Assembly: GCA_937942365.1 (NCBI GenBank)
Contig: CALDFB010000276.1
Span: 1-59,427, forward strand
Direction: 5' to 3'
DNA: 59,427 nucleotides
Origin: an uncultured Marinicella sp.
GTDB taxonomy: Bacteria; Pseudomonadota; Gammaproteobacteria; Xanthomonadales; Marinicellaceae
Shown: positions 9,734 to 40,946 of the stretch, one piece after another
Numbering within the stretch: the stretch's first letter is position 1
How the letters are laid out: every line of letters begins with the position of its first letter
Notes under the pieces: model-generated
What the model was told of the DNA's origin: nothing
What the model saw: the letters and a program-made list of their open reading frames with translations, nothing else
The model's database searches: none
Made by a program: the position numbers and the translations under genes

Positions 9734-11929
9734 TCAATCAAGCTCAAAGCCATTTTGAAAGATTAAGTCATTCTCCCAAATCACAAAACCATTGCCTGGA
9801 AAACCCACATACAGTTTTCCTGGAATCACTGGGTCAGCTTCCATGACTCTGGCCACATCATAGACTTGTTCAGGGTGCTGGCCTATTTTTTGCCAAGTAA
9901 CGCCCTCATCAGCAGACAGCCAATAACCAAATTCACCATCAACTCGACCTTGAATATAAACAGCGGGGTAACCACCTAACGTTAAGGGCGGACCAACAGC
10001 GGCGTTTAAAATTTCGCTGGTGTTGGTTAATGTGGTCCAACTGAGACCAGCATCTGTAGATCGCTTTAAGGGCTGCATCACATTGATATCTGATTCAGCA
10101 TTATGTGCATACCATAAATGCCCTGCTTGGCCTGGGGTACTGACTAATTTGGCATGGAAACCGTAAAAGTCTTGTAAAGCCGTTCTTTCGCTCCATGTTT
10201 CTCCACCGTTTTCGCTGACATAAATACTGCCATTTTGCCAATTGTAGATGTAAAAAGTATTGGGTAAAACCCGGTCAGCAGTGAGGGCCTTTTTATAGGA
10301 AAAGTTGAACTTGTGACAGCAGTCATCACCAAAGTTAGGCAGTGTTGCTGCCGTCCAAGTGTTGCCTAAATCCCTGCTGAAATAAACAGTGCGATTACCA
10401 GAAGGTAGCCAGACCACATTGTTGTTGTCATTGGCTGCAAGAGCAATGTTGCCGAATACGCCATAGTCTTGGTCATTCACAGGGTTGGTAGGAAATGGTG
10501 TCCATGTTGCGCCACCATCACTGCTGTAGCCACTGTAGCGTGTTTGGTTGTCTAAACAACATTCACGGTGGTCTTCAATGATACCCACAATAAAGTCCAG
10601 ATTATTCGGGTGATTATCCATGTCCCAAGCGGAATTGAATCGTTCACTGGGCTGATGAATCAAAGGATAGTTCTCTTCATCTTGATGCAAAAATACTGGT
10701 CTGTCCCAATGCATGGTGACTTGTTGGCCCTGGCCATTAACCACCAGATCATTGCTGACCAGGTGCTCTTGTTTCAATGACTGTTCTTCCCAGATCATGT
10801 TTTGGTTATTGACCCCATCCACCAACCAAGTTCCAACTCCGTCACTGATCCACAGCTGGTCTGGATTGATCGGATCAAACTCAGCTTCACCAATGACAAA
10901 CCATTCTCCTTGTGACCACTCTAGCCAAGGAATGTTATTGGCTATGCGAGTGCGTGTTGGGTAAAACCAGGTGGGTGAGGCATTCGAAGCATTGGTGGTC
11001 AGTGCAGTTTCAGTGAAACCAAAGGATAAGGTCATCACCCTTTCAGTGTTTTGTGGATCAACGGCCACATTAAAGTAAGTGGTGCCATTGTTTTGTAGGC
11101 TTTGCCAGGTGTTGTCACGAAAGACCATGATACCAAGAGTTTGGTTCAAGAAATCATAGCCAACAGTATAAACTTGGCCAGTGGCATTGATCTCGGCGTC
11201 TAAAAACACTGGACCAGAAAAGCCTAAATCGGTTAGCTGCCAAGTATTACCGGCATCGGTTGATTCGAACATCCCCTCACCATCAACTGTGACCAGAACG
11301 CGGCTGGTTTTACCCGCAATAACGATGCTGCTTGGGTCGAATAAAACCTGTCGAACGCCACGTCCAACTATGCCATTGGGGATATTGGCCACCTGCCCCC
11401 AGGTGATGCCGGCATTGTCACTTTTCCACAAACCATCCTCAATGGTGGCCATATAAACGACATCTTTATTCACAGGATCGACACTTAAACGTTCGCCGGA
11501 AGTTTTGCTGTCATCTTTATTGGCTGGCATGGGCGTACTTGGAAAACTGGTTTTAGTCCAATCATCACCTTGGTTGTCTGAACGATAGATGCCATCGTTG
11601 TAGGCCAGATAAGCTCGATTGGCATCTGAAGGGGCAGAAACGATGCTCAAAACGCCGTCATACTGATTCCAATAAACGTCTGATTCAGGGATGTTATTGG
11701 CGCCTACCACATTCACCCAGTTCATGGTTGTGCGATCCAGTCGATAGGCACTGCCCACATCAACGCGGGTAAAGACAGGGTTTCCCGATGGATGAATACT
11801 CATGCCGGTGGCCCAGCCACCAGCACCTGTCGGTAAAACGCGCCAGGACTCATCCTGGGCTTGTACAGCTGAAGTCAAAGCCAGCAGGGTAAAAATAAGT
11901 CTTTTCAGTGTGGGCTGAATCATAATCAC
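9734..11929 (-). CDS. Secreted BNR/Asp-box propeller protein, GH74 xyloglucanase-like, with C-terminal DLIFQNGFE tag
   Basis: Signal peptide (VQA|Q); GAGGWATG..RVDVGSAYR; GERLSVDP; repeated SxDxGxTW; ends DLIFQNGFELD. Confidence 0.8.
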   Translation of the reverse strand: MIMIQPTLKRLIFTLLALTSAVQAQDESWRVLPTGAGGWATGMSIHPSGNPVFTRVDVGSAYRLDRTTMNWVNVVGANNIPESDVYWNQYDGVLSIVSAPSDANRAYLAYNDGIYRSDNQGDDWTKTSFPSTPMPANKDDSKTSGERLSVDPVNKDVVYMATIEDGLWKSDNAGITWGQVANIPNGIVGRGVRQVLFDPSSIVIAGKTSRVLVTVDGEGMFESTDAGNTWQLTDLGFSGPVFLDAEINATGQVYTVGYDFLNQTLGIMVFRDNTWQSLQNNGTTYFNVAVDPQNTERVMTLSFGFTETALTTNASNASPTWFYPTRTRIANNIPWLEWSQGEWFVIGEAEFDPINPDQLWISDGVGTWLVDGVNNQNMIWEEQSLKQEHLVSNDLVVNGQGQQVTMHWDRPVFLHQDEENYPLIHQPSERFNSAWDMDNHPNNLDFIVGIIEDHRECCLDNQTRYSGYSSDGGATWTPFPTNPVNDQDYGVFGNIALAANDNNNVVWLPSGNRTVYFSRDLGNTWTAATLPNFGDDCCHKFNFSYKKALTADRVLPNTFYIYNWQNGSIYVSENGGETWSERTALQDFYGFHAKLVSTPGQAGHLWYAHNAESDINVMQPLKRSTDAGLSWTTLTNTSEILNAAVGPPLTLGGYPAVYIQGRVDGEFGYWLSADEGVTWQKIGQHPEQVYDVARVMEADPVIPGKLYVGFPGNGFVIWENDLIFQNGFELD

Positions 11930-12176
11930 CTCTCTTAGTCAGGTTGTTTTTATCGTTAGCTAAAAATTTTAGCCAACGATCATGCCGATAATTAAGCACC
12001 CGATCACAGATTAACCCTTACTTTGTGAAATTTAGGTTAAAACCCAGGTGTTCTGAGGGATAGAGGCATTTATTAAAATAGATAGATAAAGGCTCAAAAG
12101 GGGTGAGTTAAAACTTAGGGTTTATAATTCATATCAGAATTATGTAAAACATCGAACAAACAAGCGGAGCCAAGCC

Positions 12177-23496: not shown

Positions 23497-25716
23497 ATGC
23501 AACGCAAGAAAATCGTACTTTCCATCACACTGGCATTGGGCTTGGCCCAAAATCAAGTTCATGCACAATTTGACTTTGATCCTGTTATTCAGCTTGGGGA
23601 TATAAATGGCACCATTGGCTTTCGTCTGGACGGTGTGGCAGCAGGAGACTTCTCTGGCATCGCCGTGAGTACTGCAGGTGATGTCAACGGTGATGGTTTG
23701 GATGACCTCATTATCGGGGCTGATAGAGCCGACCCGAATGGCAGTTCTTCCGGCAGCAGCTATGTGGTGTTTGGTAACAATACAGGGTTTAACGCAACGA
23801 TCAATCTGAGCACGCTGGATGGTAGCAACGGCTTCCGACTCGATGGCGCAGCAGAAAACGACTTCTCTGGCCGAGCAGTGAGCGCAGCAGGTGATGTCAA
23901 TGGCGATGGCTTTGATGACCTGCTGATCGGCGCTTTTGGGGCTGGTTCAATTTCTGGTAGCAGCTATGTGGTGTTTGGTAACAATACAGGATTTAACGCA
24001 ACGATGAACCTGAGCACGCTGGATGGCAGCAATGGTTTTCGACTCGATGGCACAGCAGAATATGATGCTTCCGGACGCGCAGTAAGCACAGCTGGTGATG
24101 TCAATGGCGATGGCTTTGATGATCTGCTGATCGGGGCTTATGGTGCCGACCTAAATGACGGTTTATCAGGAAGCAGTTACCTGGTATTTGGGACGAATAC
24201 TGGATTTAATGCTACGCTGGACTTGAGCACACTGGATGGCAGCAACGGTTTTCGACTCGATGGCGCAGCAGAAAACGACTTCTCTGGCAGAACAGTGAGC
24301 ACGGCAGGTGATGTCAATGGCGATGGCTTTGATGACCTGCTGATCGGGGCTGTAGGGGCTACCCCGAATGGTACTTATTCCGGCAGCAGCTACGTGGTGT
24401 TTGGTAAGAGTACTCCGTTTACCGCCACACAGAACCTGAGTACGCTGGATGGCACCAACGGCTTCCGCCTCGATGGCGCGGCATCTGACCGATCCGGCGA
24501 TGCAGTGAGCGCAGCTGGCGATGTCAATGGCGATGGCTTTGATGACCTGCTGATCGGGGCCGTAGGGGCTGGTTCATTTTCTGGTAGAAGCTACGTGGTA
24601 TTTGGTAAGAGCGCCCCTTTTACCGCCACAATGAACCTGAGCACGTTGGATGGCACCAACGGCTTCCGCCTCGATGGCGCGGCATCTGACCGATCCGGCG
24701 ATGCAGTGAGCGCAGCTGGCGATGTCAATGGCGATGGTTTTGATGACCTACTGATCGGGGCTATTGGGGCTGAGCCTAATGGCTCTAGTTCCGGTAGCAG
24801 TTATGTGGTATTTGGTAAAGACACTGGGTTTAATGCCACGCAGAACTTGAACACGCTCGATGGCACCAACGGCTTCCGCCTGGATGGCGCAGCAAACGGT
24901 GATTTTTCTGGCGGTTCAGTTAGCACAGCTGGCGATATCAATGGTGATGGCTTTGATGATCTGCTGTTTGGGGCTTATGGTGCCGACCCCAATGGTTCTT
25001 TTTCCGGCAGCAGTTATGTGTTTTTTGGCCGTACTGCTGGTATTCCATTGATAAATTTCGACCAGGAACTGTTTAATTTTGGCGATACCATACTGGGCAC
25101 CAGCAGCGATGTAGCCACCGTCACATTAAGCAACCCGGGAACCGGTAACGCCTCGATCGTTACCATTAACTTGGCTGACCCTGCATTCTCAATCACCGGT
25201 GGCAGCTGCGGCACGACACCCTTCCTCATCCAATTCGGTGAATCTTGCACACTGGATCTACAATTCACACCACAAGCAGTAGGTAGCGCTTTGATAAAAA
25301 CAGTGTTTGAAGGTAACTCCTTCACCACCCCCGACTCAATCACTCTGGCAGGCAATGGCGTGCTACCGCCAATGGTCTCTTTACAACCTGATCCATTGGT
25401 CTTTATGGACACCCCAGTTGGAAACAGCAACATCGAAACACTTACTGTCGAAAACATCGGCCAAAATAGCACCTTGGAACCCGGAATGGTTTCCATCCTA
25501 GGCACCGATGCGGCTGATTTCAGCATAGCCATGAATAACTGCATGGGCGCACAACTAGAACTCAATCAATCCTGTGACATCGAGGTGAGTTTTACCCCAA
25601 GTGCAGCTGGCACCCGAGAGGCCGTGTTACAACTTCAGTCCAATGCACCAAGCAGCCCCGACTTTATCGAACTGACAGGTAGCAGCGATGTGATTTTTAA
25701 ATCAGGGTTTGAGTGA
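23497..25716 (+). CDS. Secreted 7x FG-GAP propeller + two ASH/Ig-like (choice-of-anchor D-like) domains + DVIFKSGFE
   Basis: Signal peptide; seven AGD[VI]NGDGxDDL repeats; two Ig-like units (NxG...F...C...CxxxxxFTP). Confidence 0.92.
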   Translation: MQRKKIVLSITLALGLAQNQVHAQFDFDPVIQLGDINGTIGFRLDGVAAGDFSGIAVSTAGDVNGDGLDDLIIGADRADPNGSSSGSSYVVFGNNTGFNATINLSTLDGSNGFRLDGAAENDFSGRAVSAAGDVNGDGFDDLLIGAFGAGSISGSSYVVFGNNTGFNATMNLSTLDGSNGFRLDGTAEYDASGRAVSTAGDVNGDGFDDLLIGAYGADLNDGLSGSSYLVFGTNTGFNATLDLSTLDGSNGFRLDGAAENDFSGRTVSTAGDVNGDGFDDLLIGAVGATPNGTYSGSSYVVFGKSTPFTATQNLSTLDGTNGFRLDGAASDRSGDAVSAAGDVNGDGFDDLLIGAVGAGSFSGRSYVVFGKSAPFTATMNLSTLDGTNGFRLDGAASDRSGDAVSAAGDVNGDGFDDLLIGAIGAEPNGSSSGSSYVVFGKDTGFNATQNLNTLDGTNGFRLDGAANGDFSGGSVSTAGDINGDGFDDLLFGAYGADPNGSFSGSSYVFFGRTAGIPLINFDQELFNFGDTILGTSSDVATVTLSNPGTGNASIVTINLADPAFSITGGSCGTTPFLIQFGESCTLDLQFTPQAVGSALIKTVFEGNSFTTPDSITLAGNGVLPPMVSLQPDPLVFMDTPVGNSNIETLTVENIGQNSTLEPGMVSILGTDAADFSIAMNNCMGAQLELNQSCDIEVSFTPSAAGTREAVLQLQSNAPSSPDFIELTGSSDVIFKSGFE

Positions 25717-25787
25717 CGTGGTGAATACTCATATACGAAGCTTCTTAATAAAATACATTTAGAAATTAAATTAAAGGGTCAATAAAC

Positions 25788-28025
25788 ATGCAACGCAAGA
25801 AAATCGCACTTTCCATCACACTGGCATTGGGCTTGGCCCAAAACCCCGTTCATGCGCAATTTGACTCTGTGATTCAACTGAGTGATTTAGATGGCACCAC
25901 TGGTTTCCGCCTGGATGGTGTTGCGACATTCGACCAGTCAGGCAGCGCAGTGAGTTCTGCTGGTGATATCAATGGCGATGGCTTTGATGACCTCATTATC
26001 GGTGCTAATAATGCTGACCCGAACGGCGTTAGTTCCGGCAGCAGCTATGTGGTGTTTGGTAAGGGTACTCCGTTTACCGCCTCACTGAATCTGAGCATGC
26101 TGGATGGAACCAACGGATTCCGGCTTGATGGCGAAGCAGCGAATGACTTCTCAGGTTTCGCAGTGAGCGCAGCTGGTGATATCAATGGCGATGGTTTTGA
26201 TGACCTTATTATCAGTACACCTTTCACTGACCCGAACGGCCTTCGCTCCGGCAGCAGCTACGTGGTGTTTGGCACCAATCTCCCGTTTAATCCCACAATT
26301 AACTTGGGCACGCTGAATGGCAGCAATGGTTTTCGACTCGATGGCGCAACAGAATATGATGATTCCGGACGCGCAGTGAGCACAGCTGGTGATATCAATG
26401 GCGATGGCTTTGATGACCTCATAATTGGGGCTGATGGTGCCAACCCGAACGGCGTTAGTTCCGGCAGCAGCTACGTGGTGTTTGGTAAAAGTACTCCGTT
26501 TACCGCTACGCAGAACTTAAGCACGCTGGATGGAACCAACGGCTTTCGCCTTGATGGCGAAGCGGCGAACGACTTTTCGGGCAGAGATGTGAGTAATGCT
26601 GGTGATGTCAATGGTGATGGCATCGACGATCTCATTATCGGGGCTTTTGGTGCCAGCCCGAACGTCAGTGGTTCTGGCAGCAGCTACGTGGTATTTGGTA
26701 AGAGTACTCCGTTTTCTGCCACACAAAGTTTGAGTACACTGAATGGCAACAACGGCTTCCGACTTGATGGCGAAGCGACCTATGATCTTTCCGGCCGCAG
26801 CGTGAGCGCTGCTGGTGATCTCAATGGTGATGGCTTTGATGACCTCATTATTGGGGCTGATGGTGCTGACCCGAACGGCCTTCGTTCCGGCAGCAGCTAT
26901 GTGGTGTTTGGCAAGAGTACTCCATTTACCACCACGCAGAACTTAAGCATGCTGGATGGCAGCAACGGCTTTCGTCTTGATGGTGAAGCGACGGACGACT
27001 ATTCGGGCAGAAATGTGAGTGCAGCTGGCGATGTCAATGGCGATGGCTTTGATGATCTCATTATCGGGGCTGATGGTGCTGACCCAAATGGCAGTTTATC
27101 TGGAAGCAGTTACGTGGTATTTGGGACGAATACTGGATTAAATGCTACACTGAATCTGGGCACGCTGGATGGAACCAACGGCTTCCGACTTGATGGCGAA
27201 GCGGCCCTTGACTCTTCCGGCCGCGAAGTGAGCACAGCAGGTGATGTTAATGGCGATGGCATTGATGACCTCATTATCGGTGCACCTTTTGCTGACCCGA
27301 ACGTCAGTAATTCCGGCAGCAGCTACGTGGTGTTTGGTCGACTCACTGGATTTCCATTGGTCAATTTCGATGTGAACCTGATTGATTTTGGTGATACAAC
27401 ACTAGGGACCAGCAGCAATACAAGCACCGTAACCTTAAGTAATCCCGGTACCGGTCTGGTCACCATTGATGGCATTAACCTGGCAGATCCTGCATTCGCC
27501 ATCACCGGTGGCGACTGTGGCACGCCACCATTCTTCATCGGCGTCAACGAAACCTGCACACTTGACCTGCAGTTCACACCGCAAGTAATTGGTACCACGG
27601 TAACCAAGGCCATTGTTGAGAGTAATTCAGCCTCAAGCCCCGACTCATTCTTCCTGATTGGCAACGGCGTGCTGCCACCAATGGTCTCTTTACAACCCGA
27701 TCCGCTGGTCTTTATGGACACCCCAGTTGGAAACAGCAGCACCGAAACACTCACGGTCGAAAACATCGGCCCAAGTAGCACCTTGGAACCCGGAATGGTT
27801 TCTATCCTAGGCGCTGATGCGGCTGATTTCAGCATCACCACAAACAACTGCCTCGGCGCACAACTAGAACTCAACCAGTCTTGTGACATTGAAATCAGTT
27901 TTACACCCAGCGTAGCCGGCACCCGCGCAGCGATGATACAGCTGGAGTCCAATGCACCCAGCAGCCCCGACTTTGTTGAACTGCTGGGCAGCAGTGATGT
28001 GATTTTTAAGTCTGGGTTTGAGTGA
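25788..28025 (+). CDS. Secreted 7x FG-GAP propeller + two ASH/Ig-like domains + DVIFKSGFE (paralog of 23497)
   Basis: Same architecture; near-identical signal peptide and last Ig domain. Confidence 0.92.
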   Translation: MQRKKIALSITLALGLAQNPVHAQFDSVIQLSDLDGTTGFRLDGVATFDQSGSAVSSAGDINGDGFDDLIIGANNADPNGVSSGSSYVVFGKGTPFTASLNLSMLDGTNGFRLDGEAANDFSGFAVSAAGDINGDGFDDLIISTPFTDPNGLRSGSSYVVFGTNLPFNPTINLGTLNGSNGFRLDGATEYDDSGRAVSTAGDINGDGFDDLIIGADGANPNGVSSGSSYVVFGKSTPFTATQNLSTLDGTNGFRLDGEAANDFSGRDVSNAGDVNGDGIDDLIIGAFGASPNVSGSGSSYVVFGKSTPFSATQSLSTLNGNNGFRLDGEATYDLSGRSVSAAGDLNGDGFDDLIIGADGADPNGLRSGSSYVVFGKSTPFTTTQNLSMLDGSNGFRLDGEATDDYSGRNVSAAGDVNGDGFDDLIIGADGADPNGSLSGSSYVVFGTNTGLNATLNLGTLDGTNGFRLDGEAALDSSGREVSTAGDVNGDGIDDLIIGAPFADPNVSNSGSSYVVFGRLTGFPLVNFDVNLIDFGDTTLGTSSNTSTVTLSNPGTGLVTIDGINLADPAFAITGGDCGTPPFFIGVNETCTLDLQFTPQVIGTTVTKAIVESNSASSPDSFFLIGNGVLPPMVSLQPDPLVFMDTPVGNSSTETLTVENIGPSSTLEPGMVSILGADAADFSITTNNCLGAQLELNQSCDIEISFTPSVAGTRAAMIQLESNAPSSPDFVELLGSSDVIFKSGFE

Positions 28026-28187
28026 GATATACATCTGACTTTAATTCACTGGTGTGGTGAAAACTGAACTTCAAGGTTTAACCAAAAACACACGTACGCT
28101 GTGTAAAATACCACTTCTTTCTCTCCAGTGAATTGAGCCCTGTAAGCGTCATTAAAGTGGAGTGGTTTAAAACTCAAGGGTATAAAA

Positions 28188-29780
28188 ATGCAACGAAAAA
28201 AGATCACTTTAGCGGTTTCAATGGCCTTGTGCCTGACACACATGCACAGTGCCAATGCTCAATTTGAACCCACCATTGAACTGGCCGATCTTAATGGCTT
28301 AAATGGCATCAGATTCAATGGCGTCGCTGAGTTCGATAACACCGGTGTTTCAGTCTCGTCAGCTGGTGACATCAACGGTGATGGCATAGATGATCTGATC
28401 ATCGGCGCCAATGATGCTGATCCAAATGGGACTGATCGTGCTGGCAGCAGTTATGTGGTGTTTGGTACATCCATTGGTTTACCCAGTCCCTTTGAGTTAT
28501 CAACTTTAAATGGCAGCAATGGTTTCACCATTAACGGGGTTGCTGATGTAGACTTGTCAGGTTTTTCAGTCGATGGGGCTGGAGACATCAATGGCGATGG
28601 CTTTGATGACTTAATCATTGGTGCGCTGTATGCCGATGTGAATGGTGCCAAGGATGCTGGCAGCGCCTATGTGGTGTTTGGTTCAAATACTGGTTTACCC
28701 AACCCGTTGAATTTATCCGACCTTGATGGCAACAACGGCTTTGCGCTTCATGGGATTGGCATGGGTGACCGAACCGGAAGAGCTGTCAGTGCTGCAGGTG
28801 ATATCAACGGTGATGGCATCGATGACTTGGCTATTTCTGCAGATCGTGCCAGCCCAGGTGGCAGCAACAGTGCTGGCAGCGCCTATGTGGTATTTGGCTC
28901 GAACAGTGACTTACCCAACCCTTTTAATCTATCCAGTCTCAACGGTAACAATGGCTTCACCATCAATGGCTCTTCATCTTTTGACCAGGTAGGCACTTCC
29001 GTCAGCACAGCAGGGGACATCAATGGCGATGGCATAGATGATCTGATCATCGGCGCTGATAGCGCAGGCACAACAGGTAGCACATATGTGGTGTTTGGCT
29101 CCGATAATGGTATACCCAATCCTTTCAGTTTATCTGCCATCAACGGTACCAACGGGTTTTCCATCAATGGCGAGGCCAGTGGCGATTTGTTAGGTTTTTC
29201 AGTCAGTGCTGCGGGCGATGTTAACCACGATGGCATAGATGATTTAATTGTAGGTGCCCGTGGTGCTGATCCGAGTGGTAACAGTTTTGCTGGCAGCAGC
29301 TACGTCATTTATGGGTCTGATTCTGGTATTCCTCACCCTTTTGATTTATCAACCCTTAATGGTACCAATGGATTTGCTCTCAACGGTATAGCAGAAAATG
29401 ATTACTCTGGCATTTCAGTCAGTGCAACTGGCGACATCAATGGTGATGGTATGGATGATCTGATCATCGGAGCCAGCGGTGCAGACCCTAATGGCTCAAA
29501 TAGTGCCGGCAGTGCTTATGTGGTATTTGGTTCTGACGCGGGCATTTCACACCCTTTTGATTTATCGGCCCTCAATGGAGTTAACGGTTTTACTGTCAAT
29601 GGTGTTTCGAATTCAGACACCACCGGTTATTCAGTCAGCGAAGCGGGTGATTTCAACGGTGATGGTTTGAACGACATATTGATAGGTGCTCGCAGGGCAG
29701 ATCCTGATGGTAACAGCAGTGCTGGCAGCAGCTATGTGGTGTTTGGTAATGATGTGATTTTTAAAAGTGGGTTTGAGTAA
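28188..29780 (+). CDS. Secreted 7x FG-GAP propeller + DVIFKSGFE
   Basis: Seven FG-GAP repeats; no Ig stalk. Confidence 0.92.
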   Translation: MQRKKITLAVSMALCLTHMHSANAQFEPTIELADLNGLNGIRFNGVAEFDNTGVSVSSAGDINGDGIDDLIIGANDADPNGTDRAGSSYVVFGTSIGLPSPFELSTLNGSNGFTINGVADVDLSGFSVDGAGDINGDGFDDLIIGALYADVNGAKDAGSAYVVFGSNTGLPNPLNLSDLDGNNGFALHGIGMGDRTGRAVSAAGDINGDGIDDLAISADRASPGGSNSAGSAYVVFGSNSDLPNPFNLSSLNGNNGFTINGSSSFDQVGTSVSTAGDINGDGIDDLIIGADSAGTTGSTYVVFGSDNGIPNPFSLSAINGTNGFSINGEASGDLLGFSVSAAGDVNHDGIDDLIVGARGADPSGNSFAGSSYVIYGSDSGIPHPFDLSTLNGTNGFALNGIAENDYSGISVSATGDINGDGMDDLIIGASGADPNGSNSAGSAYVVFGSDAGISHPFDLSALNGVNGFTVNGVSNSDTTGYSVSEAGDFNGDGLNDILIGARRADPDGNSSAGSSYVVFGNDVIFKSGFE

Positions 29781-29921
29781 TTAGGTTTTACTTAACTAAT
29801 ATCTCAGCTATTTTGGTTTTTTTAAATCCATATTTTTAACATTAACGAATAACAAACAATTTATTTGTTATCATTTCATCGCTGTGTTTTTAGCTTCATT
29901 AAATCAATAAGGAAATCAATC

Positions 29922-31499
29922 ATGCGATTCAAAAAAAATAAAATAGTTATGGGTGTTACTCTTGCACTAAGCTTTTCCCAAAACAATGCTTTTGCTCAAT
30001 TTGATCCTGTAATCCAACTCAATGAGTTAAATGGTACAAACGGTTTTCGTATAGATGGAGAATCTTTGGCAGATCGCTCTGGTTTTTCAGTCAGTACTGC
30101 AGGAGATTTTAATGGTGATGGAGTCGATGACCTCATTATTGGAGCTTATCAAGCTGACCCTGGTGGTACTGACTCCGGTAGCAGCTATGTTATTTTTGGC
30201 ACAAATGTCGGGGTGGGTTCTTCATTTAGTCTAAGTTCTTTAGATGGCTCTAACGGTTTTCGCCTCGATGGTGCGACAAAGGGTGAACGATCTGGTCTAG
30301 CGGTGAGCGATGTTGGCGATGTTAATGGCGATGGTATTGGTGATATAATTATTGGAGCACCTCGTGCCAATCCAAATATGAGTTATTCAGGCAGTAGTTA
30401 CGTGGTGTTTGGTTCTGACGTTTTATTCGATGCCACATTGGGCCTCAGTTCACTTGATGGCTCCAATGGCTTTCGTCTTGACGGCGAAACTTTAGGTGAT
30501 TTATCAGGCAGCGCAGTAAGTGCAGCTGGAGATATCAATGGTGATGGAATTGATGATATAGTCATCGGTGCATACAACGCTGATCTCAATGGCGCTTTTT
30601 CAGGAAGCAGCTATGTGGTTTTTGGCAGCAGTGGATTCAATGCCACACTGAATCTCAGTACATTAGATGGCTCTAATGGCTTTCGCCTAGATGGCATGGC
30701 ATTTGAGTCTTCTGGCGGTGCTGTAAGCAGTGCTGGTGATGTTAATGGCGATGGCATTGACGACCTTATCATCGGTGCTCAGTATGCGGACAATAATGGG
30801 AGCTCATCTGGTAGTACTTACCTGGTATTTGGTACCAAAACAGAATTTAGTGCTACACTGGATCTCAGTACTTTGGATGGTGTCAACGGCTTTAGGATAG
30901 ATGGTACCTCGGCCAGAGACTTACTTGGCAGGTCAATAAGCCGTGCTGGTGACGTCAATGATGATGGCATTGATGATATTATCATTGGGGCGCCTCGTGC
31001 CGATTATAGTGGTGTTGATTCTGGCAGCACTTATGTGGTGTTTGGTTCAAATGCTGGATTTGATGCCACGTTTAATGTCGAATCCCTTAATGGCATCAAC
31101 GGTTTTCGGATTGATGGTACTACTGCTGATGAACGATCCGGTACTGCAGTAAACAAAGCGGGGGATGTCAACGGTGATGGCATTGATGATATTATCATTG
31201 GGGCACCTCTTGCCGACGTTAATGACGACGATTCTGGCAGTAGCTACTTAGTATTTGGTCGCAGCACCGCTTTTGAAGCCAGTTTAAATTTAAGTAGTCT
31301 GAATGGATCAAATGGCTTCCGACTCGATGATTCAGGGGTAGGTAATTTTTCTGGGTTTGCAGTAAGTTCTGCTGGTGATTTTAATGGTGATGGCATGAGT
31401 GACGTCATTATTGGAGCCTACAATGCTAACAACAGTGTTGGCAGTAGCTATGTGGTTTATGGAAAAACTGACGTTATATTTATGGACAGCTTTGAATAA
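29922..31499 (+). CDS. Secreted 7x FG-GAP propeller + DVIFMDSFE (start corrected to MRFKKNK)
   Basis: aagga RBS before ATG 29922; seven FG-GAP repeats. Confidence 0.92.
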   Translation: MRFKKNKIVMGVTLALSFSQNNAFAQFDPVIQLNELNGTNGFRIDGESLADRSGFSVSTAGDFNGDGVDDLIIGAYQADPGGTDSGSSYVIFGTNVGVGSSFSLSSLDGSNGFRLDGATKGERSGLAVSDVGDVNGDGIGDIIIGAPRANPNMSYSGSSYVVFGSDVLFDATLGLSSLDGSNGFRLDGETLGDLSGSAVSAAGDINGDGIDDIVIGAYNADLNGAFSGSSYVVFGSSGFNATLNLSTLDGSNGFRLDGMAFESSGGAVSSAGDVNGDGIDDLIIGAQYADNNGSSSGSTYLVFGTKTEFSATLDLSTLDGVNGFRIDGTSARDLLGRSISRAGDVNDDGIDDIIIGAPRADYSGVDSGSTYVVFGSNAGFDATFNVESLNGINGFRIDGTTADERSGTAVNKAGDVNGDGIDDIIIGAPLADVNDDDSGSSYLVFGRSTAFEASLNLSSLNGSNGFRLDDSGVGNFSGFAVSSAGDFNGDGMSDVIIGAYNANNSVGSSYVVYGKTDVIFMDSFE

Positions 31500-31538
31500 A
31501 GTAATATGTGATCAAATATTGAATAAAAAACCCGAATT

Positions 31539-32576
31539 ATGACCCAAAATAAACTTGAATTTAATGGCTCCAGACAGTTCTGCAGCTGGCTGATTGAACA
31601 CAATATCAGTTTGAGCTTTTCCACCTATCAAGCGGGTAAGTTGTTTTTTATTGGTATGCAGGATGAGGCTAAGATGTCGGTTTTTGAGCGGACTTTTGCG
31701 CGCTGTATGGGTATTGGACTCGACCCTAAAACCATGAGTTTATGGGTGGCCAACCTTTACCAACTTTGGCGTTTTGAAAATGCTTTAAAGCCCGGACAAT
31801 CACACCAAGGTTTTGATCGAGTTTACGTACCACAAGTGGGCTACACCACGGGCGATGTCGATGCGCATGATGTGGCCATTGATGATGAAGGAGTTCTTTT
31901 TGTGAACACCTTATTCAGTTGTTTGGCCAGGCCAAGTGACCAATACAGCTTTGAATCCATCTGGCAACCGCCGCATATTTCTAAACTGGCCGCTGAAGAC
32001 CGCTGTCACCTCAATGGCCTAGCGACCAAAGATGGTCAGGCCGCTTATGTCACCTGTGTCAGCCAAACCGATGTGAATGAAGGCTGGCGCGAACACCGCC
32101 AAACCGGTGGTGTGGTGATTGATGTACAAAACAATGAAGTGGTGGCTGATGGTTTATCCATGCCGCACTCACCCAGATGGTATAACGGAAAACTATGGGT
32201 GCTGAATTCAGGTGAGGGTGAGTTTGGCTACATTGACCTGACCAGTGGTCGATTTGAGCCAGTGGCTTTTTGTCCAGGTTATCTGCGTGGCATGAGCTTT
32301 CATGGTGACTACGCGGTGGTAGGTCTTTCTAAGCCCAGAGGCAATAAAACCTTCGAAGGTCTGAAACTGCATGAAAAACTTGAAGCTAAAAAGGTACAGC
32401 CTCGCTGTGGCTTACAAGTGATTAATCTAAACACAGGTGATGTGGTTCATGAATTAAGAATCGAAGGAGTGGTCGAGGAGTTATACGATGTGTGTATTCT
32501 GCCCGGAGTGAAAAGACCCATGGCCATCGGTTTTATGAACGAGGAGATCAGGCGGGTATTGTCTTTGCCGTTTTAA
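31539..32576 (+). CDS. TIGR03032 / DUF4915-like protein
   Basis: STYQAGKL; TGDVDAHD; VNTLFSCLA; EDRCHLNGLA; GLSMPHSPRW; FCPGYLRG; VGLSKPR; no signal peptide. Confidence 0.88.
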   Translation: MTQNKLEFNGSRQFCSWLIEHNISLSFSTYQAGKLFFIGMQDEAKMSVFERTFARCMGIGLDPKTMSLWVANLYQLWRFENALKPGQSHQGFDRVYVPQVGYTTGDVDAHDVAIDDEGVLFVNTLFSCLARPSDQYSFESIWQPPHISKLAAEDRCHLNGLATKDGQAAYVTCVSQTDVNEGWREHRQTGGVVIDVQNNEVVADGLSMPHSPRWYNGKLWVLNSGEGEFGYIDLTSGRFEPVAFCPGYLRGMSFHGDYAVVGLSKPRGNKTFEGLKLHEKLEAKKVQPRCGLQVINLNTGDVVHELRIEGVVEELYDVCILPGVKRPMAIGFMNEEIRRVLSLPF

Positions 32577-32853
32577 AAAGATCTTTTTAAGAAGGACTAA
32601 CCAATGTCCAAGTACAATCAAAAGATCATTCAATCATTGTAATCACAACTCTATAAAAAACTGGAGTTGCCTAATGCAAAGGCTTTGCATAGAAACTTGA
32701 TGTCAGTTTAATGGTTTTTTGAGACTAAATACCTGCTCTTAATTATACTGAAGCTCCGACAAAGTAAAACCAAACTTTTGGCTTAATCAATTTTTTTATG
32801 GCAAAATAAAAATAACAGTAAAAAACCTCGACAATGTAAGGGAGTATTTAAAA

Positions 32854-34455
32854 ATGAACCGCAAGAAAATCGTTGTTTCTATTACCTTGGTATTGAGTCT
32901 AGCGCAACAACCTGCATTGGCGCAATTTCCATCACCTTTAGAGCTGAGCACTTTAAATGGTAACAATGGCTTCACCATCAACGGTGTGAATTTAAATGAC
33001 CGCTCTGGTACCTCAGTCAGCTCAGCAGGTGATATTAATGGCGATGGCATCGATGACCTTATTATTGGTGCTCCGTTGGCTGATCCTAATGGAGCGGGTG
33101 ATGCTGGCAGCAGCTATGTGGTCTTTGGTTCTGATAATCCACTGCCCAACCCTTTTAATTTAAGCACCATCAATGGCAGCAATGGCTTCTCTATCAACGG
33201 CGAGGCTGCTGGTGACTCCTCTGGCTTTTCTGTCAACTCAGCTGGTGATATTAATGGCGATGGCATCGATGACCTTATTATTGGTGCGCCATATGCAGAC
33301 CCAAATAATAATTTGTCTGGCAGTAGCTATGTAGTGTTTGGGCGTGATTCAGGTTTTACATCCGCACTAAATCTTTCTGGTTTAAACGGATCCAATGGTT
33401 TTGCGATTAATGGTGTGGCAGCAGCAGACCTCTCAGGTACTTCAGTGAGTTCAGCTGGTGATTTTAACGGTGATGGCATAGATGATTTGATCATTGGTGC
33501 AATATACGGTGAACCTAAAGGTGATGATTATGCTGGTGGCAGTTACGTAGTCTTCGGACGTGATACGGGTTTTACATCCACATTAGAGCTGTCTAGTTTA
33601 AATGGTTCCAACGGTTTCTCCATTAGCGGTGTGGCTACAGATGACCAGTCTGGCTTCTCTGTTAGTTCAGCGGGAGATGTTAATGGTGATGGTATAGATG
33701 ATGTGATCATTGGTGCGCCATATGCAGACCCTAATAGTAACGATGAAGCTGGTAGTAGCTATGTGGTATTTGGTTCTGACAACCCACTGCCCAACCCTTT
33801 TAATTTAAGCACCATCAATGGCAGCAATGGTTTCTCTATCAACGGTGTGTTTGCAGGTGACAACTCTGGCTTTTCTGTCAGTGCAGCTGGTGATGTTAAT
33901 GGCGATGGCATCGATGATCTGATTATTGGTGCTAATCGCGCAGACCCCAATGGCAACCAAAATGCTGGCAGCAGTTATGTGGTATTTGGTTCTGATAGCT
34001 CATTACCGAACCCTTTTAATTTAAGTACCATCAATGGCACCAATGGCTTCACCATCAACGGTGTGATAAGTGGAGAAAACTCTGGATTTTCTGTCAGCGC
34101 AGCGGGCGATATCAATGGCGATGGCATAGATGATTTGATTATTGGCGCCCCAAATGCAAATTTTTCTGTTAATTTAGTCGGTGCGAGTGATGTACTGTTA
34201 GGTTCAAAAAACCCCATACCCCATCCATTTAATATCAGCACAATTAATGGCCTAAATGGCTTCAGTATGTTTGGTGTGGCAAATGGCGACAGGACTGGTG
34301 CAGCAGTCAGTGCTGCAGGTGATGTCAACGGTGATGGAGTTGATGACTTGATTATCGGTGCTCCTTTTGCTGACCCTAATGGCGTAGGTGTTGCTGGCAG
34401 CAGCTATGTGGTATTCGGCGAAAGAGACCTGATTTTTAAGGATGGGTTTGAATAG
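32854..34455 (+). CDS. Secreted 7x FG-GAP propeller + DLIFKDGFE
   Basis: Signal peptide (ALA|QF); seven repeats, several with literal IIGAP. Confidence 0.92.
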   Translation: MNRKKIVVSITLVLSLAQQPALAQFPSPLELSTLNGNNGFTINGVNLNDRSGTSVSSAGDINGDGIDDLIIGAPLADPNGAGDAGSSYVVFGSDNPLPNPFNLSTINGSNGFSINGEAAGDSSGFSVNSAGDINGDGIDDLIIGAPYADPNNNLSGSSYVVFGRDSGFTSALNLSGLNGSNGFAINGVAAADLSGTSVSSAGDFNGDGIDDLIIGAIYGEPKGDDYAGGSYVVFGRDTGFTSTLELSSLNGSNGFSISGVATDDQSGFSVSSAGDVNGDGIDDVIIGAPYADPNSNDEAGSSYVVFGSDNPLPNPFNLSTINGSNGFSINGVFAGDNSGFSVSAAGDVNGDGIDDLIIGANRADPNGNQNAGSSYVVFGSDSSLPNPFNLSTINGTNGFTINGVISGENSGFSVSAAGDINGDGIDDLIIGAPNANFSVNLVGASDVLLGSKNPIPHPFNISTINGLNGFSMFGVANGDRTGAAVSAAGDVNGDGVDDLIIGAPFADPNGVGVAGSSYVVFGERDLIFKDGFE

Positions 34456-36324: not shown

Positions 36325-37032
36325 TTATTTTTTTGGTACATATACATATTTTCTTATTTCTTCAACAACTTCCGGATATAAGAAAAAAGAAGAATTCTCT
36401 GCTAAAAAATAATTAGGCAAAGTTACTGTCTTTCTTCTTCGCTTTGTAAAGTATATATTACTCCAAATTAAAGCTGTTCGTGCTCGGTGCTGCTTATTAT
36501 CTAAAACTTTTTCAATAAACCCATTCAATACCAATAAATTTTCTTTGGTTTTATTGTCAGTTTGTTTGAGTAGTTCTTCGAATTTAGGAAGTAAAGGGAC
36601 ATTTTCCGTTCTTAATGAATAATTATAAAGAATTGAATTACAATACCGCCTTAGTTCCCAAACCACTCGATCTAGATACACCACTTCATGTTCATGTAAA
36701 TACCACGAGACTTCCATATACCTATATTTAGCATTAGTCTCTTCTAAACGTTTTAGGAATTTATCCGATTGATCTGAGATCTTTATATCAATGTGACCTG
36801 ACAAAATTTCTAGTGTTCTTCTTACCTCGTGTCCTAAGGGTGGTTTTGGCTTTGGAGTTCGGCTTAATAAAATAATACACTTCGCATATTTTTCTAAAGC
36901 ATGTAATGCAGACCAGTGAAACTGAGGGATTAAAGCAGAACGATATGCCATACGCGCATGAATGTAATCCTTATCTGCGGTGTCTCTAAGCCCTCTAAGA
37001 GCATAATCATTTATTTTATCGTTAATATTCAT
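36325..37032 (-). CDS. HEPN-domain protein
   Basis: ADKDYIHAR...ALEKYAKC...LGH pattern typical of HEPN; AT-rich. Confidence 0.7.
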   Translation of the reverse strand: MNINDKINDYALRGLRDTADKDYIHARMAYRSALIPQFHWSALHALEKYAKCIILLSRTPKPKPPLGHEVRRTLEILSGHIDIKISDQSDKFLKRLEETNAKYRYMEVSWYLHEHEVVYLDRVVWELRRYCNSILYNYSLRTENVPLLPKFEELLKQTDNKTKENLLVLNGFIEKVLDNKQHRARTALIWSNIYFTKRRRKTVTLPNYFLAENSSFFLYPEVVEEIRKYVYVPKK

Positions 37033-37068
37033 ATTCGCTTTGAGGTTTCTTTCTTGAATGCTTGATAT

Positions 37069-37513
37069 GGTATACCAAACTTGGCTTGTTAATCGGGTAA
37101 ATTATTAACCGACGAAAGCTCTAGCCTAGATTCCTGCCACTCGCCTAGGCTCGGCTGAAATGACGGTGGTTGATTAGCTTTCTAGATTGGAAAATCTAAC
37201 TGCTTCACCCTGCATTAAGCTTAAGTAACTAAAGAACAAAAGAACGTCATTGCGAAGGAGGTACGACTGCGGCAATCTCCATAAATCTGGTGTAATGCTT
37301 TTTGTATAAATTACCTTTGCTTTACGAGATTGCCGCGGTCGTTTCACTCCCTCGCAATGACACCGATTTTTACTCTTTCCCAACGCTCCAGCGTGGGAAT
37401 GCATAGGGATGTTCATGTTAAGTTTAACTCATCAATCAAATTAATCGTTAACCTGAAAAACCTTCTGCCTGGATTCCTACTAACTCACTTAGGCTCGGCT
37501 GGAATGACGGTGG
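37069..37513. repeat. Mosaic cluster of REP/RPE-like repeats (C+B, A, D, B)
   Basis: 37069-37166 is the reverse homolog of 12547-12640; A 37246-37361; D ~37374-37406; B 37455-37513. Confidence 0.8.
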
Positions 37514-37549
37514 TTTTTTTGAACTTTTAACCTTTGGAATGTTTACTGA

Positions 37550-37745
37550 TGTGCAGTTAAGTGTTTTTGAAACCAGTGGCTCATCCTTGAGCGTTTTAAT
37601 CCTTTTGATTCCTTTATATGTTTAGCAGGCAGTTAAGTTTTAAATCTCTTGTTAACTTATATCCTTGAACTCGTCCTGGAGTGTTATCTTCCTTTTAATT
37701 CCTTTTTTACCTATTTAAGAGAGGGAGTTTTTTAACTGCCTTATT
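37550..37745 (-). ncRNA. Candidate CsrA/RsmA-sequestering sRNA (boundaries approximate)
   Basis: Seven AGGA motifs in 120 nt on the minus strand, two in hairpin loops; three-motif module repeated at a 90-nt period. Confidence 0.6.
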
Positions 37746-37916
37746 TATATACTCGTAAAACAAGTCCAAACCTTGTCAAAATAATTGAATTATTTTTAAT
37801 TTATTTGGTGGCAGTTAAGGGTTTTTCATGAACAGCGCTATATATTGGGTGTTTTGAGGGTGGTTTTATTTGACAAATTTTCCATGGTATTAAAGTAGAC
37901 ACTATTTTATTTTCAA

Positions 37917-37988
37917 TGGATAGTTGGCTTCAGCCAACCTGTATAACTAATGATTCTAAAACCTGTTGACTAAAGTCAACAACCCAAA
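37917..37988. repeat. Family-E REP doublet
   Basis: gttggcttcagccaac ... gttgactaaagtcaac; homolog of 12694-12769. Confidence 0.7.
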
Positions 37989-38116
37989 AGTGGGTCAAAT
38001 ATTCTTCAAAACCTTAAAGATAAATGTGTAGCAACTAAAAGCCTTGCACTAAAAGGGCATAGTTTTAACTAGCGAACTGAAACAATAAATCATTCATTCT
38101 AAGTTTTTTGGATTTA

Positions 38117-38174
38117 GAAAAACCTTCTGCCTAGATTCCTGATCTCGCCTCCGGCTCGTCTGGAATGACGGTGG
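38117..38174. repeat. Family-B repeat, direct repeat of 37455-37513
   Basis: gaaaaaccttctgcct(a/g)gattcct...ggctcg(t/g)ctggaatgacggtgg. Confidence 0.75.
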
Positions 38175-38387
38175 GTTTATTGGCTTTTCTAGTTTTGTGA
38201 TTCTATTAACCCGTCTACAAAATACCGTACGTTTCAGTCTAAGACAGTTCGTTCGTAGCGCCAAGGGACTTGTATCTTAGAAAAGTGTCTATTAATCAAC
38301 AATGGTTTAGACTATCCAATGGCGATTGGATAAAGGGATAGTGATACTCATAACTGTCATTTTCTTTCTTTGAGTTTTTTAGTCTGG

Positions 38388-40946
38388 TTAGCTACTTTCT
38401 AGGGTGACAAATACATTGCTGAAATCGCACTTTTTTAAATCGCTTTTATGAATTACAAAATACAAGTCTCCAGCATCTCCCCAGCTCATATCACCTGTAG
38501 AAGTTACTTTTAAAAGTGTCATCCAATCTTGAGGTTGTCCTTTTTTCTTTAAGGATGCTTGTAGTTCTGGCATTTCGTTTTGGGTAAAGCCATACGCATT
38601 TACCGCATAGTCATGAGGATACGCCCTAATTAAAGGCCCCTCAAAATCGTCGTATATAGCATCAAGTAGTTGCTCATTATCTAGTAAAGTTTCAGCTTCG
38701 CCTTCGAATAAATGTGTATTTACTTTTCTGCAATACATATCAGGACAGCTACTCATTTTTTCAGCATTTACCTTATGGCCTTCATACTCATTACCTGACA
38801 TTTCTGAATAGTCATCTTCTTCAAATTTAAATCTTTTACCAGACGCTAAGGTTTTAGTGTCTTCTACATATAGTATTTTGCATGAGGTATCACTTTCATC
38901 ATAAACACTATGAATGGTTTCTAAAAAGAAAAACAGCATGCCTTTTCTTGGTAAATAGCCTTGTAAATGTGCTATCGCTGTACAGTTAATTTGCCCTATA
39001 AACTCGTGAATATAGTCTTTCTTCTCGTCATGCCAATTGTCACCAAATCTTGGGTACGGCATATCTTCTGGTAAATCTGGCATACCGCCAAAACGGTGAT
39101 TTCCTATAGTTGTGTAATCTTCTTTCTCAACATGCTGAAAACTGATGCCTTTTTTAATGAGCGAAAGTAGGGATGTCGAATGTTCTTGTAATTTACTTTT
39201 AGTAACTATGGTTTTTATTTCGGGAAGTAAGTCGCAGTCATGTTTGACATAAAATACCTTGTCTTCCCAAGAAACTAAACCTTTACCATCTGCGCCTTTG
39301 TACTCATAATCTAGAAGGCGTAACTTATCTTCCATAGCCATTTCCAATGTTTTTATTGTATTGAAGATGCCAGGAAGCGTTTCTAATGGGTTATTTTCAA
39401 TAGCAATTGCTGTTAGCTTGGGTTGTTTTGCCAGAGATTCTGGTAAGGTTATAAATTGATTGTTATTTAAACTGATCGTTGTAACTGCTGGTAGGTTTAT
39501 TTTTTCTGGAATGGCAGATAATTGGTTTGTATCTAGCGATAAATAGTCTAATTTGGGCAACTGCCAAACCTCGTCTGGTATGGCTTCTAATTCGCAGTTA
39601 TAAAAAGATAAACGTTCTAACTGCTTTAGCTTCACGATACTTTCAGGAAGCGTTTTTAATGCTGCTTTCTGTATGTAAATGCTTTTTAATTTGCTGAACG
39701 TACCTATTTCTGCTGGTATTTCATTGAAAGGTAATTTCTCCTTGTTTCCATGATTATTAACAGTGAGCTTCTCTAAATTTTTAAAATTAAGAAAGGTTTC
39801 AGGAAATTTTGAAAAACTGGGATTGGTAAGTGATAGAAACCGAACATCTTTTGGGTTTGTGGTGGTTGTTTCTTCCATGGAACTAAAATGATAATCTTTC
39901 CACTCTAAAGGAGTCGTATCAAACTTCTTCGCTATTTGTATAGGAAACGCTTTATCATGATACGTTTTGGTCATTTCACCATTAACCAAAAACCAGCCAT
40001 CTTTAAGACATACATTACCATTAAAATCTAGACGATAATCAAATCCTTCTATATCTGAACGTAAGAAAAATGGTGCTTCCGTTTTACCTTCCTTGAATTG
40101 AAATTCTCCTGTAGGAACACCATTTTTGTGAATACCTTGAAAGGGGATTGAAATTTCTACTTCTCCATTGTCTTCATAATCATCTAAAACCGCTGCTTTT
40201 ATTGCTTTCTTAGGTGTTTTTGCTTTTGCCTTAATGGTTACATGTAGTTTGTTTGAGTAGTCACTTATTATCATTTGGCAATCAACTAAAATAAAATCAA
40301 AATCACCTACTGTAAAAAATGCATTATCCTTATCAGGAATTGCAATAGATTTAAATGTTTTAGTTTCTTCGATACTGTAATTATCATCTACATCATCACT
40401 GTAATCATCACCCATATCACCAAGCATATCATCTAGTCTTTTTTCATAGGCTTGCGCATCGGCTTGACGTTTTTTCGCATCTGCAAGCACTGTTACAGAA
40501 TTCAGGCTATGCTTGGTCCAATCTTCTAAAAACCCATCTTTAGTAACCTCATGTATACTTATAAATGAGATAAAATCTACCTCATCTATTAAAATGATGG
40601 CAAACAAATAATGTAAATTACATTGTTTATCTAATACTTTGGTATTTACTTTGGCCGACAGTGTTAAGGCTTTACAGCCATTGATAGTAATTTCTTCAAC
40701 AGCGCTTATATCCTTCTGATTTTCTTCTGTAAGGTAATAATTGATCATTTTTTCTGAGAACGTGGTACCTTTTATTTCGTCACTATTAAAGTATTTTATG
40801 TCCTCTATACTAAGCCTTACAGAATGTGGGTGTATGGTAAATGGAATTTGACTGCTTCTGGAAAGTGCTATTATTTCTGAACTGGTATACTCATCAAAAG
40901 TATTTGGTACTTCAAAACTAAAAAGTGGGTGTTCTATTTTTTTCAT
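38388..40946 (-). CDS. Leucine-rich repeat + YwqG/DUF1963 domain protein
   Basis: LRRs (LPESIVKLKQLERLSF, LSLDTNQL, LNNNQF); RFGGMPDLP, FIGQIN, LPRKGMLFFF, WGDAGDLYFVI. Confidence 0.85.
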   Translation of the reverse strand: MKKIEHPLFSFEVPNTFDEYTSSEIIALSRSSQIPFTIHPHSVRLSIEDIKYFNSDEIKGTTFSEKMINYYLTEENQKDISAVEEITINGCKALTLSAKVNTKVLDKQCNLHYLFAIILIDEVDFISFISIHEVTKDGFLEDWTKHSLNSVTVLADAKKRQADAQAYEKRLDDMLGDMGDDYSDDVDDNYSIEETKTFKSIAIPDKDNAFFTVGDFDFILVDCQMIISDYSNKLHVTIKAKAKTPKKAIKAAVLDDYEDNGEVEISIPFQGIHKNGVPTGEFQFKEGKTEAPFFLRSDIEGFDYRLDFNGNVCLKDGWFLVNGEMTKTYHDKAFPIQIAKKFDTTPLEWKDYHFSSMEETTTTNPKDVRFLSLTNPSFSKFPETFLNFKNLEKLTVNNHGNKEKLPFNEIPAEIGTFSKLKSIYIQKAALKTLPESIVKLKQLERLSFYNCELEAIPDEVWQLPKLDYLSLDTNQLSAIPEKINLPAVTTISLNNNQFITLPESLAKQPKLTAIAIENNPLETLPGIFNTIKTLEMAMEDKLRLLDYEYKGADGKGLVSWEDKVFYVKHDCDLLPEIKTIVTKSKLQEHSTSLLSLIKKGISFQHVEKEDYTTIGNHRFGGMPDLPEDMPYPRFGDNWHDEKKDYIHEFIGQINCTAIAHLQGYLPRKGMLFFFLETIHSVYDESDTSCKILYVEDTKTLASGKRFKFEEDDYSEMSGNEYEGHKVNAEKMSSCPDMYCRKVNTHLFEGEAETLLDNEQLLDAIYDDFEGPLIRAYPHDYAVNAYGFTQNEMPELQASLKKKGQPQDWMTLLKVTSTGDMSWGDAGDLYFVIHKSDLKKCDFSNVFVTLESS

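Follow-up and report, generated by a model that had tools for sequence, protein, structure and literature searches.

The window, the whole stretch of DNA analyzed here, comprises 59,427 nucleotides from an uncultured Marinicella sp. It contains five FG-GAP genes and, among them, a single gene of the TIGR03032/DUF4915 family, all encoded on the same strand:

23497..25716, + strand: FG-GAP gene 1, with a signal peptide (by eye), seven FG-GAP repeats, two choice-of-anchor D domains and a DxIFxxGFE tail
25788..28025, + strand: FG-GAP gene 2, with the same architecture as gene 1
28188..29780, + strand: FG-GAP gene 3, a single propeller followed by the tail
29922..31499, + strand: FG-GAP gene 4, a single propeller followed by the tail; 29922 is the likely start, the listed frame opening with a TTG at 29865
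31539..32576, + strand: TIGR03032/DUF4915 gene, 345 aa with an ATG start, assigned by HMM scores, predicted to form a six-bladed beta-propeller and lacking a signal peptide by eye
32854..34455, + strand: FG-GAP gene 5, a single propeller followed by the tail

The fourth FG-GAP gene ends at 31499, which leaves 39 nt before the DUF4915 gene, and another 277 nt separate the DUF4915 stop from the fifth at 32854; these open reading frame coordinates agree with the arrangement described in an earlier note on this DNA. The family assignment made there was confirmed by HMM comparison, with 485.9 bits against TIGR03032 (cut-off 251.5; positions 1–334 of 335) and 474.8 bits against PF16261 (cut-off 35), the sole Pfam match of the protein. 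The reported lack of a signal peptide also held on inspection by eye, and none was seen in the N-terminal extensions of the family members examined. TIGR03032 comprises at least 1435 clusters (50% identity, E up to 1e-30), and homologues of the present protein at 90% identity are labelled Marinicella. Synechococcus elongatus likewise encodes a protein that passes the TIGR03032 cut-off. A search of full-text literature, which excluded most subscription titles, retrieved no paper on DUF4915, TIGR03032 or PF16261, and searches for the DUF4915 gene neighbourhood gave unrelated matches only. In the protein atlas, the matches to the protein were DUF4915 clusters only, and below them came clusters without a name and, at 0.86, one that contains NHL. 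PDB sequence searches with the protein or a close alignment gave no match; those with a wide DUF4915 profile matched NHL/YWTD-type sequences. A promoter and terminator scan around the locus found fewer sites than in shuffled sequence and was uninformative, as was, in either direction, a complex prediction for the DUF4915 protein with the propeller of FG-GAP gene 4 (score 0.00).

Within the genus, nine stand-alone DUF4915 copies were identified in eight genomes, the present one included, and for eight of them an FG-GAP gene is found no more than about 2 kb away. Six of these are directly downstream of it on the same strand, one is separated by a dehydrogenase gene, and one sits between two opposite-strand FG-GAP genes; the ninth, at the end of a contig, comes after a catalase gene. 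Because the flanking genes differ, the pair has moved as a unit. The description of the gene as embedded in an FG-GAP array is accurate for this genome but not as a conserved arrangement, and was rejected as such: only this copy among the nine has a same-strand FG-GAP gene downstream, and relatives usually carry the DUF4915 gene last.

To extend the comparison, two sets of loci were assembled, 79 from GTDB (the best 80 among at least 600 matches, minus one Marinicella locus) and 76 from metagenomes (80 obtained, minus four close relatives). A locus was counted as positive when one of its genes carries two or more integrin-type repeats; by this measure, 30 of the 79 GTDB loci contain an integrin-like FG-GAP gene, on the same strand in all 30 and within 650 bp in 27; five further loci show one integrin-type repeat at the locus edge. 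The positive loci span Cyanobacteriota, Planctomycetota, Verrucomicrobiota and Pseudomonadota. Among the metagenome loci, 23/76 are positive, 18 of them same-strand, and when only loci with both flanks of at least 3 kb are considered, the proportions are 20/49 (GTDB) and 11/20 (metagenome). As a control, 50 of the 79 genomes, those with longer loci, were found to contain 292 FG-GAP propeller matches in 272 Mb, from which 1.0 positive locus would be expected, compared with 23 of 50 observed. On a quick tree, the pairing is scattered across many clades, and the counts are inflated by kin. The neighbourhood enrichment that the earlier note had set as a test of the link was thus found; the DUF4915/FG-GAP pairing is real and supports the functional link between the two that the note had put forward. 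RTX-like repeats occur in 20/79 GTDB loci. Cyanobacterial DUF4915 genes without an integrin-type neighbour (L243, L247, L250 and L253) often adjoin other proteins with DxDxDG-loop repeats.

All five FG-GAP neighbours in the window carry seven PF01839 stretches with calcium-loop motifs and, by eye, a signal peptide. Each contains 16–20% Ser+Thr, 9–18 N-x-S/T sequons and 10–14 Tyr, so potential acceptor residues exist in these proteins. The earlier note had regarded the array, the DUF4915 gene and the terminal tail as one functional module. The tail did not bear this out and was rejected as a component of such a module: a D-x-I-F-x-x-G-F-E-type tail closes 84 ORFs of many families genome-wide, six of which scored as FG-GAP-rich, and it is absent from the 22 full FG-GAP partners examined from other phyla, which have other termini instead. 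Within the window, it was found at 23497–34455 and on an ORF near 9737–11938 on the minus strand. In many partners from other phyla, the propeller forms the very start of the protein or is preceded by some other leader; the constant element of the FG-GAP partners is the propeller, and the export signal varies. The tail also sits on unrelated exported proteins, including two proteins of the arylsulfate sulfotransferase (ASST) family in relatives (L112, L113), and is a candidate sorting signal. Literature searches for the tail motif gave only unrelated text among the matches listed, and none was found pairing Marinicella with FG-GAP. Further along the window, positions 36325–40946 are low in GC (35–36% versus about 43%), possibly an acquired island, and carry a 235-aa ORF without a Pfam or NCBIfam match and an 852-aa leucine-rich-repeat-like ORF.

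The structure of the DUF4915 protein was predicted as a six-bladed beta-propeller (pLDDT 90.8, pTM 0.90). Its best fold matches are the non-enzymatic YWTD domains of nidogen and the LDL receptor (Z 24.1), with lactonases (Z 20.8 and 20.2) and PAL (Z 19.4) further down. The E. coli ASST (3ELQ) matches with Z 20.1, rmsd 3.5 and 272 aligned residues, the longest alignment of the 50 rows listed, running end to end (1–324 on 110–567), and the Streptomyces ASST Cpz4 (9KF6) with Z 18.8 and 261 aligned. Weak TIGR03032 matches in related genomes proved to represent a divergent subfamily of DUF4915 whose members are short, at about 295 aa (L120–L127, e.g., L121:4656–5537). In Marinicellaceae, these genes lie in clusters with many sulfotransferase- and glycosyltransferase-like genes; the PF13469 sulfotransferases around them include three confirmed in L121, and the related loci all come from one family. 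In the model of a short relative, residues 1–293 align end to end with 3ELQ and 9KF6, and likewise with YWTD and Kelch propellers, whereas PAL (Z 20.2) and the lactonases align only from residue 26–38 or end near 270; for the main model, these ranges do not separate the candidates. ASSTs rank 13 and 31 among the matches of the main and short-relative models. The predicted fold alone does not discriminate among YWTD, lactonase, ASST and PAL propellers.

In an alignment of 28 sequences covering the main family and the short subfamily at 17–62% identity, the invariant polar residues are H110, D154, H157, N159, H210, S211, R250, S264, R267 and E314. Among representatives at 50% identity, H110 is retained in 130/148, H157 in 143/151, N159 in 128/151, H210 in 134/150, R250 in 136/144 and R267 in 124/140. 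Structure prediction, which the earlier note had suggested as a search for an active site, places conserved polar residues at inner-strand starts and in adjoining loops, with H110, N159, H210 and R250 opening the inner strands of four successive blades in the model. The following segments contain them:

31860..31871, + strand: D108-A-H110-D111, at the inner-strand start of blade 2; H110 is the putative equivalent of ASST His252 (model, alignments, strand register)
31998..32015, + strand: D154-R-C-H157-L-N159, blade 3; putative equivalent of ASST His356-x-Asn358 (model, alignments, strand register)
32160..32171, + strand: M208-P-H210-S211, blade 4; H210 is the putative equivalent of ASST His436, the sulfo-carrying residue (model, alignments, strand register)
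32286..32339, + strand: R250 to R267 (with S264), blade 5; conserved Arg residues, candidate stand-ins for ASST Arg374, R250 lying at the Thr501 position (alignments, strand register)

The three motifs previously singled out as conserved and catalytic-looking (DAHD, DRCHLNG and MPHSPR) are present, and their histidines and D154 are invariant in the 28-sequence alignment. Two of their residues fared less well: D108 is kept in 97/148 representatives, and C156, although kept in 149/151, is missing from the short divergent members, which keep the His/Asn/Arg set, so Cys156 was rejected as a universal catalytic residue.

The ASST catalytic set is given in the available text of PMC13426309, and likewise in that of two bioRxiv preprints, as His252, His356, Asn358, Arg374, His436, which is transiently sulfated, and Thr501. 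The 3ELQ sequence reads T-H252-E, W-A-H356-V-N358, Q-H436-T and I-T501-S at these sites, and an H436N mutant entry confirms the third histidine. Counting back from the shared last inner strand, with no blade rotation and in a register that derives from strands and motifs, H110 corresponds to H252, H157-x-N159 to H356-x-N358, H210 to H436 and R250 to T501; the ASSTs compared read H-D, D-x-L-H-x-N and (P/Q/S)-H-D at the corresponding places. By motif and strand register, the DUF4915 protein thus carries three His and an Asn on successive blades, as ASSTs do, within a six-bladed propeller, a fold common to many non-enzymes. A loose version of the three-motif pattern was detected in 107/135 DUF4915 proteins and 9/16 ASSTs, and in 18/1676 of the remaining long ORFs in this genome. 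The position of Arg374, about 16 residues past the Asn, is occupied by V, C, I, A or F in DUF4915, and R250 together with R267 may substitute for it.

Sequence comparison gave no significant homology between the two families. Profile–profile comparison in three builds returned probabilities of 1.2%, 1.1% and 2.5%; the first build placed D-x-x-H-x-N and the third His in register, and the other two did not. HMM cross-searches reached a best E of 0.3, and PF05935 and PF14269 matched none of 28 DUF4915 members at E 10, although they do match genuine ASST comparators. A PF05935 search in 61 genomes of the class gave no match. Given this lack of significant homology, the out-of-register Arg374 and a register taken from strands and motifs, the DUF4915 protein is not classed here as an ASST and is only proposed to work like one. 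Nor does it belong to the PAPS-dependent sulfotransferases (PF00685/PF13469), since PF16261 is its only match and its predicted fold is a propeller. Five plasmid-encoded ASST-family proteins (L142, L143, L144, L148 and L149, four of them so annotated or unannotated) lack D-x-x-H-x-N and possibly have a variant site.

A link to sulfate comes from gene neighbourhoods. APS kinase is encoded within 7/79 GTDB loci: it abuts or overlaps the DUF4915 gene in L044, L087 and L097, lies 100 nt upstream in L033, is convergent in L075, and follows the FG-GAP gene in L085, and in L094 cysD-cysNC is directly downstream. The minimal units are cysC-DUF4915-FG-GAP (L033) and DUF4915-cysC (L044, L097), the latter without an FG-GAP gene in the locus. 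Two more cases emerged among 25 loci from evenly drawn genomes, two of which repeat earlier ones: an overlapping gene in L257 and a partial match about 0.8 kb away in L253. Of the nine loci, some belong to a betaproteobacterial and some to a cyanobacterial clade, the rest being spread over three further branches, of which two are long and unsure; two APS-kinase subfamilies are involved. Over the 1.0 Mb that the loci cover, the expectation is about 0.3 APS kinases, an estimate from an assumed one or two copies per 5 Mb. None was found in the 76 metagenome loci, which average 7.7 kb, and none adjoins the present DUF4915 gene; this genome encodes a bifunctional sulfate adenylyltransferase/APS kinase elsewhere. 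An 8-sequence profile and a motif scan detected no PAPS-type sulfotransferase in the 79 or the 76 loci, nor was one present among 20 hand-picked neighbours, so no other evident consumer exists for the PAPS made at the APS-kinase loci. Earlier examples of PAPS genes that mark sulfation clusters are described in the available text of PMC11143521 and PMC6637879.

TPR-GT41 genes occur in 14/79 GTDB and 11/76 metagenome loci. Among 59 fused DUF4915 representatives, chosen from 150 listed and with the top 25 partner families counted, the commonest partners are GNAT (25/59), TPR (24/59), GT41 (17/59) and GT2 (7/59); nucleotidyltransferase and Asp/Asn hydroxylase fusions also occur, and sulfotransferase fusions account for 2 of 120 listed. 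GT41 enzymes modify proteins in the cytoplasm, and the other fused or neighbouring enzymes would presumably likewise modify proteins or glycans there. The fusions to one or more GNAT-like domains (e.g., P0217, P0171 and P0264) are not explained by a sulfation reading. An Asp/Asn beta-hydroxylase-like domain lies N-terminal to DUF4915 in L137 (7185–9233), L138 (8014–10248) and L029, and a tail-bearing exported protein adjoins in L137 and L029. Apparent fusions in L048, L059, L063 and L107 were rejected as merely long stop-to-stop frames.

This genome contains a second DUF4915 copy (contig C69, 3521–5800, minus strand), in which the family domain is joined to TPRs and to a C-terminal domain; the orthologue of the latter matches GT9 weakly. 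The TPR/GT9-like fused form is present in most genus genomes searched. No GT41 was detected in the present genome, whose completeness is 91%. The C69 copy is flanked by three tail-bearing genes, and a 154-aa frame at 1487–1948, which comes after a duplicated neighbour, is a repeat of the C-terminal end of this copy.

Taken together, the evidence points to histidine-relay sulfuryl transfer, where the earlier note had named no chemistry. We propose, with a probability of roughly 0.35, that DUF4915 is a cytoplasmic histidine-relay sulfotransferase acting on the neighbouring FG-GAP proteins, or on their glycans, before export. H210 would take the sulfo group as His436 does in ASST, H157 would serve as acid/base, and H110, N159 and R250/R267 would hold the sulfate. 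The donor would be PAPS from APS kinase, used directly or through a small carrier. The acceptor, in the weakest step of this scheme, may be a hydroxyl of the Ser/Thr/Tyr-rich FG-GAP chain or of its glycan. Against the proposal stand, besides the lack of significant homology to ASSTs, the Arg374 position and the better-scoring non-enzymatic folds, the more than half of loci that have no FG-GAP neighbour, the rarity of sulfotransferase fusions relative to those with GNAT, TPR, GT41 and GT2, the absence of APS kinase from the 76 metagenome loci and from the immediate surroundings of the present gene, and the use of aryl sulfates rather than PAPS by characterized ASSTs.

Several alternatives were weighed against sulfotransfer onto FG-GAP proteins. 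The one that survives best, although still unlikely, assigns the same histidine site to phosphate chemistry or hydrolysis, as a phosphotransferase or as a remover of by-products of the fused transferases, such as PAP and nucleoside diphosphates. A His/Asn/Arg pocket would suit any tetrahedral oxyanion, the fusions range over GT41, GT2, GNAT and nucleotidyltransferase, and most loci have no APS kinase; yet in many loci, including the present one, DUF4915 and FG-GAP genes occur alone and no transferase is encoded, and the APS-kinase neighbours are left unexplained. Slightly less probable is a role without catalysis: as an adaptor or chaperone, the protein would bind FG-GAP repeats in their unfolded or calcium-free state in the cytoplasm and recruit the fused glycosyl- and acyltransferases to them. 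This would fit the top fold matches, which are protein-binding YWTD propellers, the fusion of the domain to many different enzymes, and a partner propeller that is constant while its termini vary. However, what remains conserved down to 17% identity is a set of His, Asn, Asp, Arg, Ser and Glu residues, and these persist in the short relatives from glycan/sulfotransferase clusters without an FG-GAP gene.

Two further alternatives appear more doubtful, and equally so. In the first, the sulfo group is transferred to a small molecule or a surface polysaccharide, and the FG-GAP protein binds or displays the product rather than serving as substrate. According to the available text of PMC13426309, the acceptors known for ASSTs are for the most part phenols and glycosides of small size; the short relatives reside in polysaccharide-type clusters, and the DUF4915-cysC pairs of L044 and L097 stand without an FG-GAP gene. 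For the main family, however, the FG-GAP gene is the closest and most frequent neighbour, often accompanied by a TPR-GT41 gene. In the second, the protein would be a metal-dependent lyase or hydrolase resembling PAL or the SMP-30/paraoxonase lactonases, with H110, H157, H210, D154 and E314 as ligands. Three His plus acidic residues can bind Zn or Fe, and these enzymes score on a par with ASST in the fold comparison. By residue numbering, however, the Glu-Asn-Asn-Asp calcium site of SMP-30/paraoxonase would appear to fall on M57, N159, H210 and R250. Of the three zinc-binding His that PAL carries on alternate blades, along with an Arg and a Tyr, two would match a DUF4915 His, and the third would fall on Y/F316. 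The partial alignments of PAL and the lactonases on the short relative, compared with 1–293 for the ASSTs, may also count against this assignment, the ranges on the main model not being separating. Finally, an incidental neighbourhood, in which both genes simply gather in variable regions, would accommodate the copy next to a catalase gene and the loci without an FG-GAP neighbour, but it is very improbable and already largely refuted by the excess over the FG-GAP density of the same genomes (23/50 versus 1.0), by the shared strand in 30/30 and by retention of the pair at different chromosomal sites in the genus and across four phyla.

A broader form of the sulfotransferase proposal, rather unlikely as a whole, would make DUF4915 a third class of sulfotransferase: a cytoplasmic propeller that takes sulfate straight from PAPS through an ASST-type sulfo-His relay, passes it to large integrin-like proteins destined for export or to their glycans, and belongs to a widespread bacterial protein-modification kit together with GT41, GT2, GT9-like and GNAT enzymes. 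Should the active-site match hold, bacterial surface proteins would undergo protein or glycan sulfation on a far wider scale than is known from the few cases described, and a single enzyme would combine PAPS-linked with ASST-type sulfotransfer. DUF4915 is a large and very conserved family, and the bacterial integrin-like propellers are likewise without a known function; the active-site match makes the function of both uncharacterized families cheaply testable. The family itself is already known though uncharacterized, its FG-GAP partnership is real and conserved, and the proposed chemistry is new and unproven.

Relative to the uncharacterized TIGR03032/PF16261 family, the present protein is a full-length member far above both cut-offs, with no difference noted. 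Its partners resemble the bacterial integrin-type seven-bladed FG-GAP propellers of Chouhan et al. 2011 (PMC3192720), which likewise have seven PF01839 repeats with calcium-loop motifs. The available text of that paper suggests a cytoplasmic role, gives no function and does not mention gene neighbours of the bacterial propellers, whereas the proteins described here carry signal peptides, as judged by eye, and are accompanied by a conserved partner gene. With ASSTs (3ELQ, 9KF6; PF05935/PF14269), DUF4915 shares the six-bladed propeller, an end-to-end fold alignment and the order His, His-x-Asn and His on three successive blades. It differs in having no significant sequence homology to them, an Arg374 position out of register, two other conserved Arg, and neither an extra N-terminal domain nor a signal peptide. 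It is also linked to APS kinase, whereas the characterized ASSTs use aryl sulfates as donor and are PAPS-independent, as stated in the available text of PMC13426309 and of a bioRxiv preprint. A functional parallel concerns RaxST and RaxX of Xanthomonas, where, according to the available text of PMC6637879, a secreted peptide is sulfated before type I export with PAPS supplied by raxPQ (ATP sulfurylase/APS kinase). RaxST, however, carries the PAPS-binding motifs of ordinary sulfotransferases, whereas DUF4915 is a predicted propeller whose proposed acceptor would be a large repeat protein.
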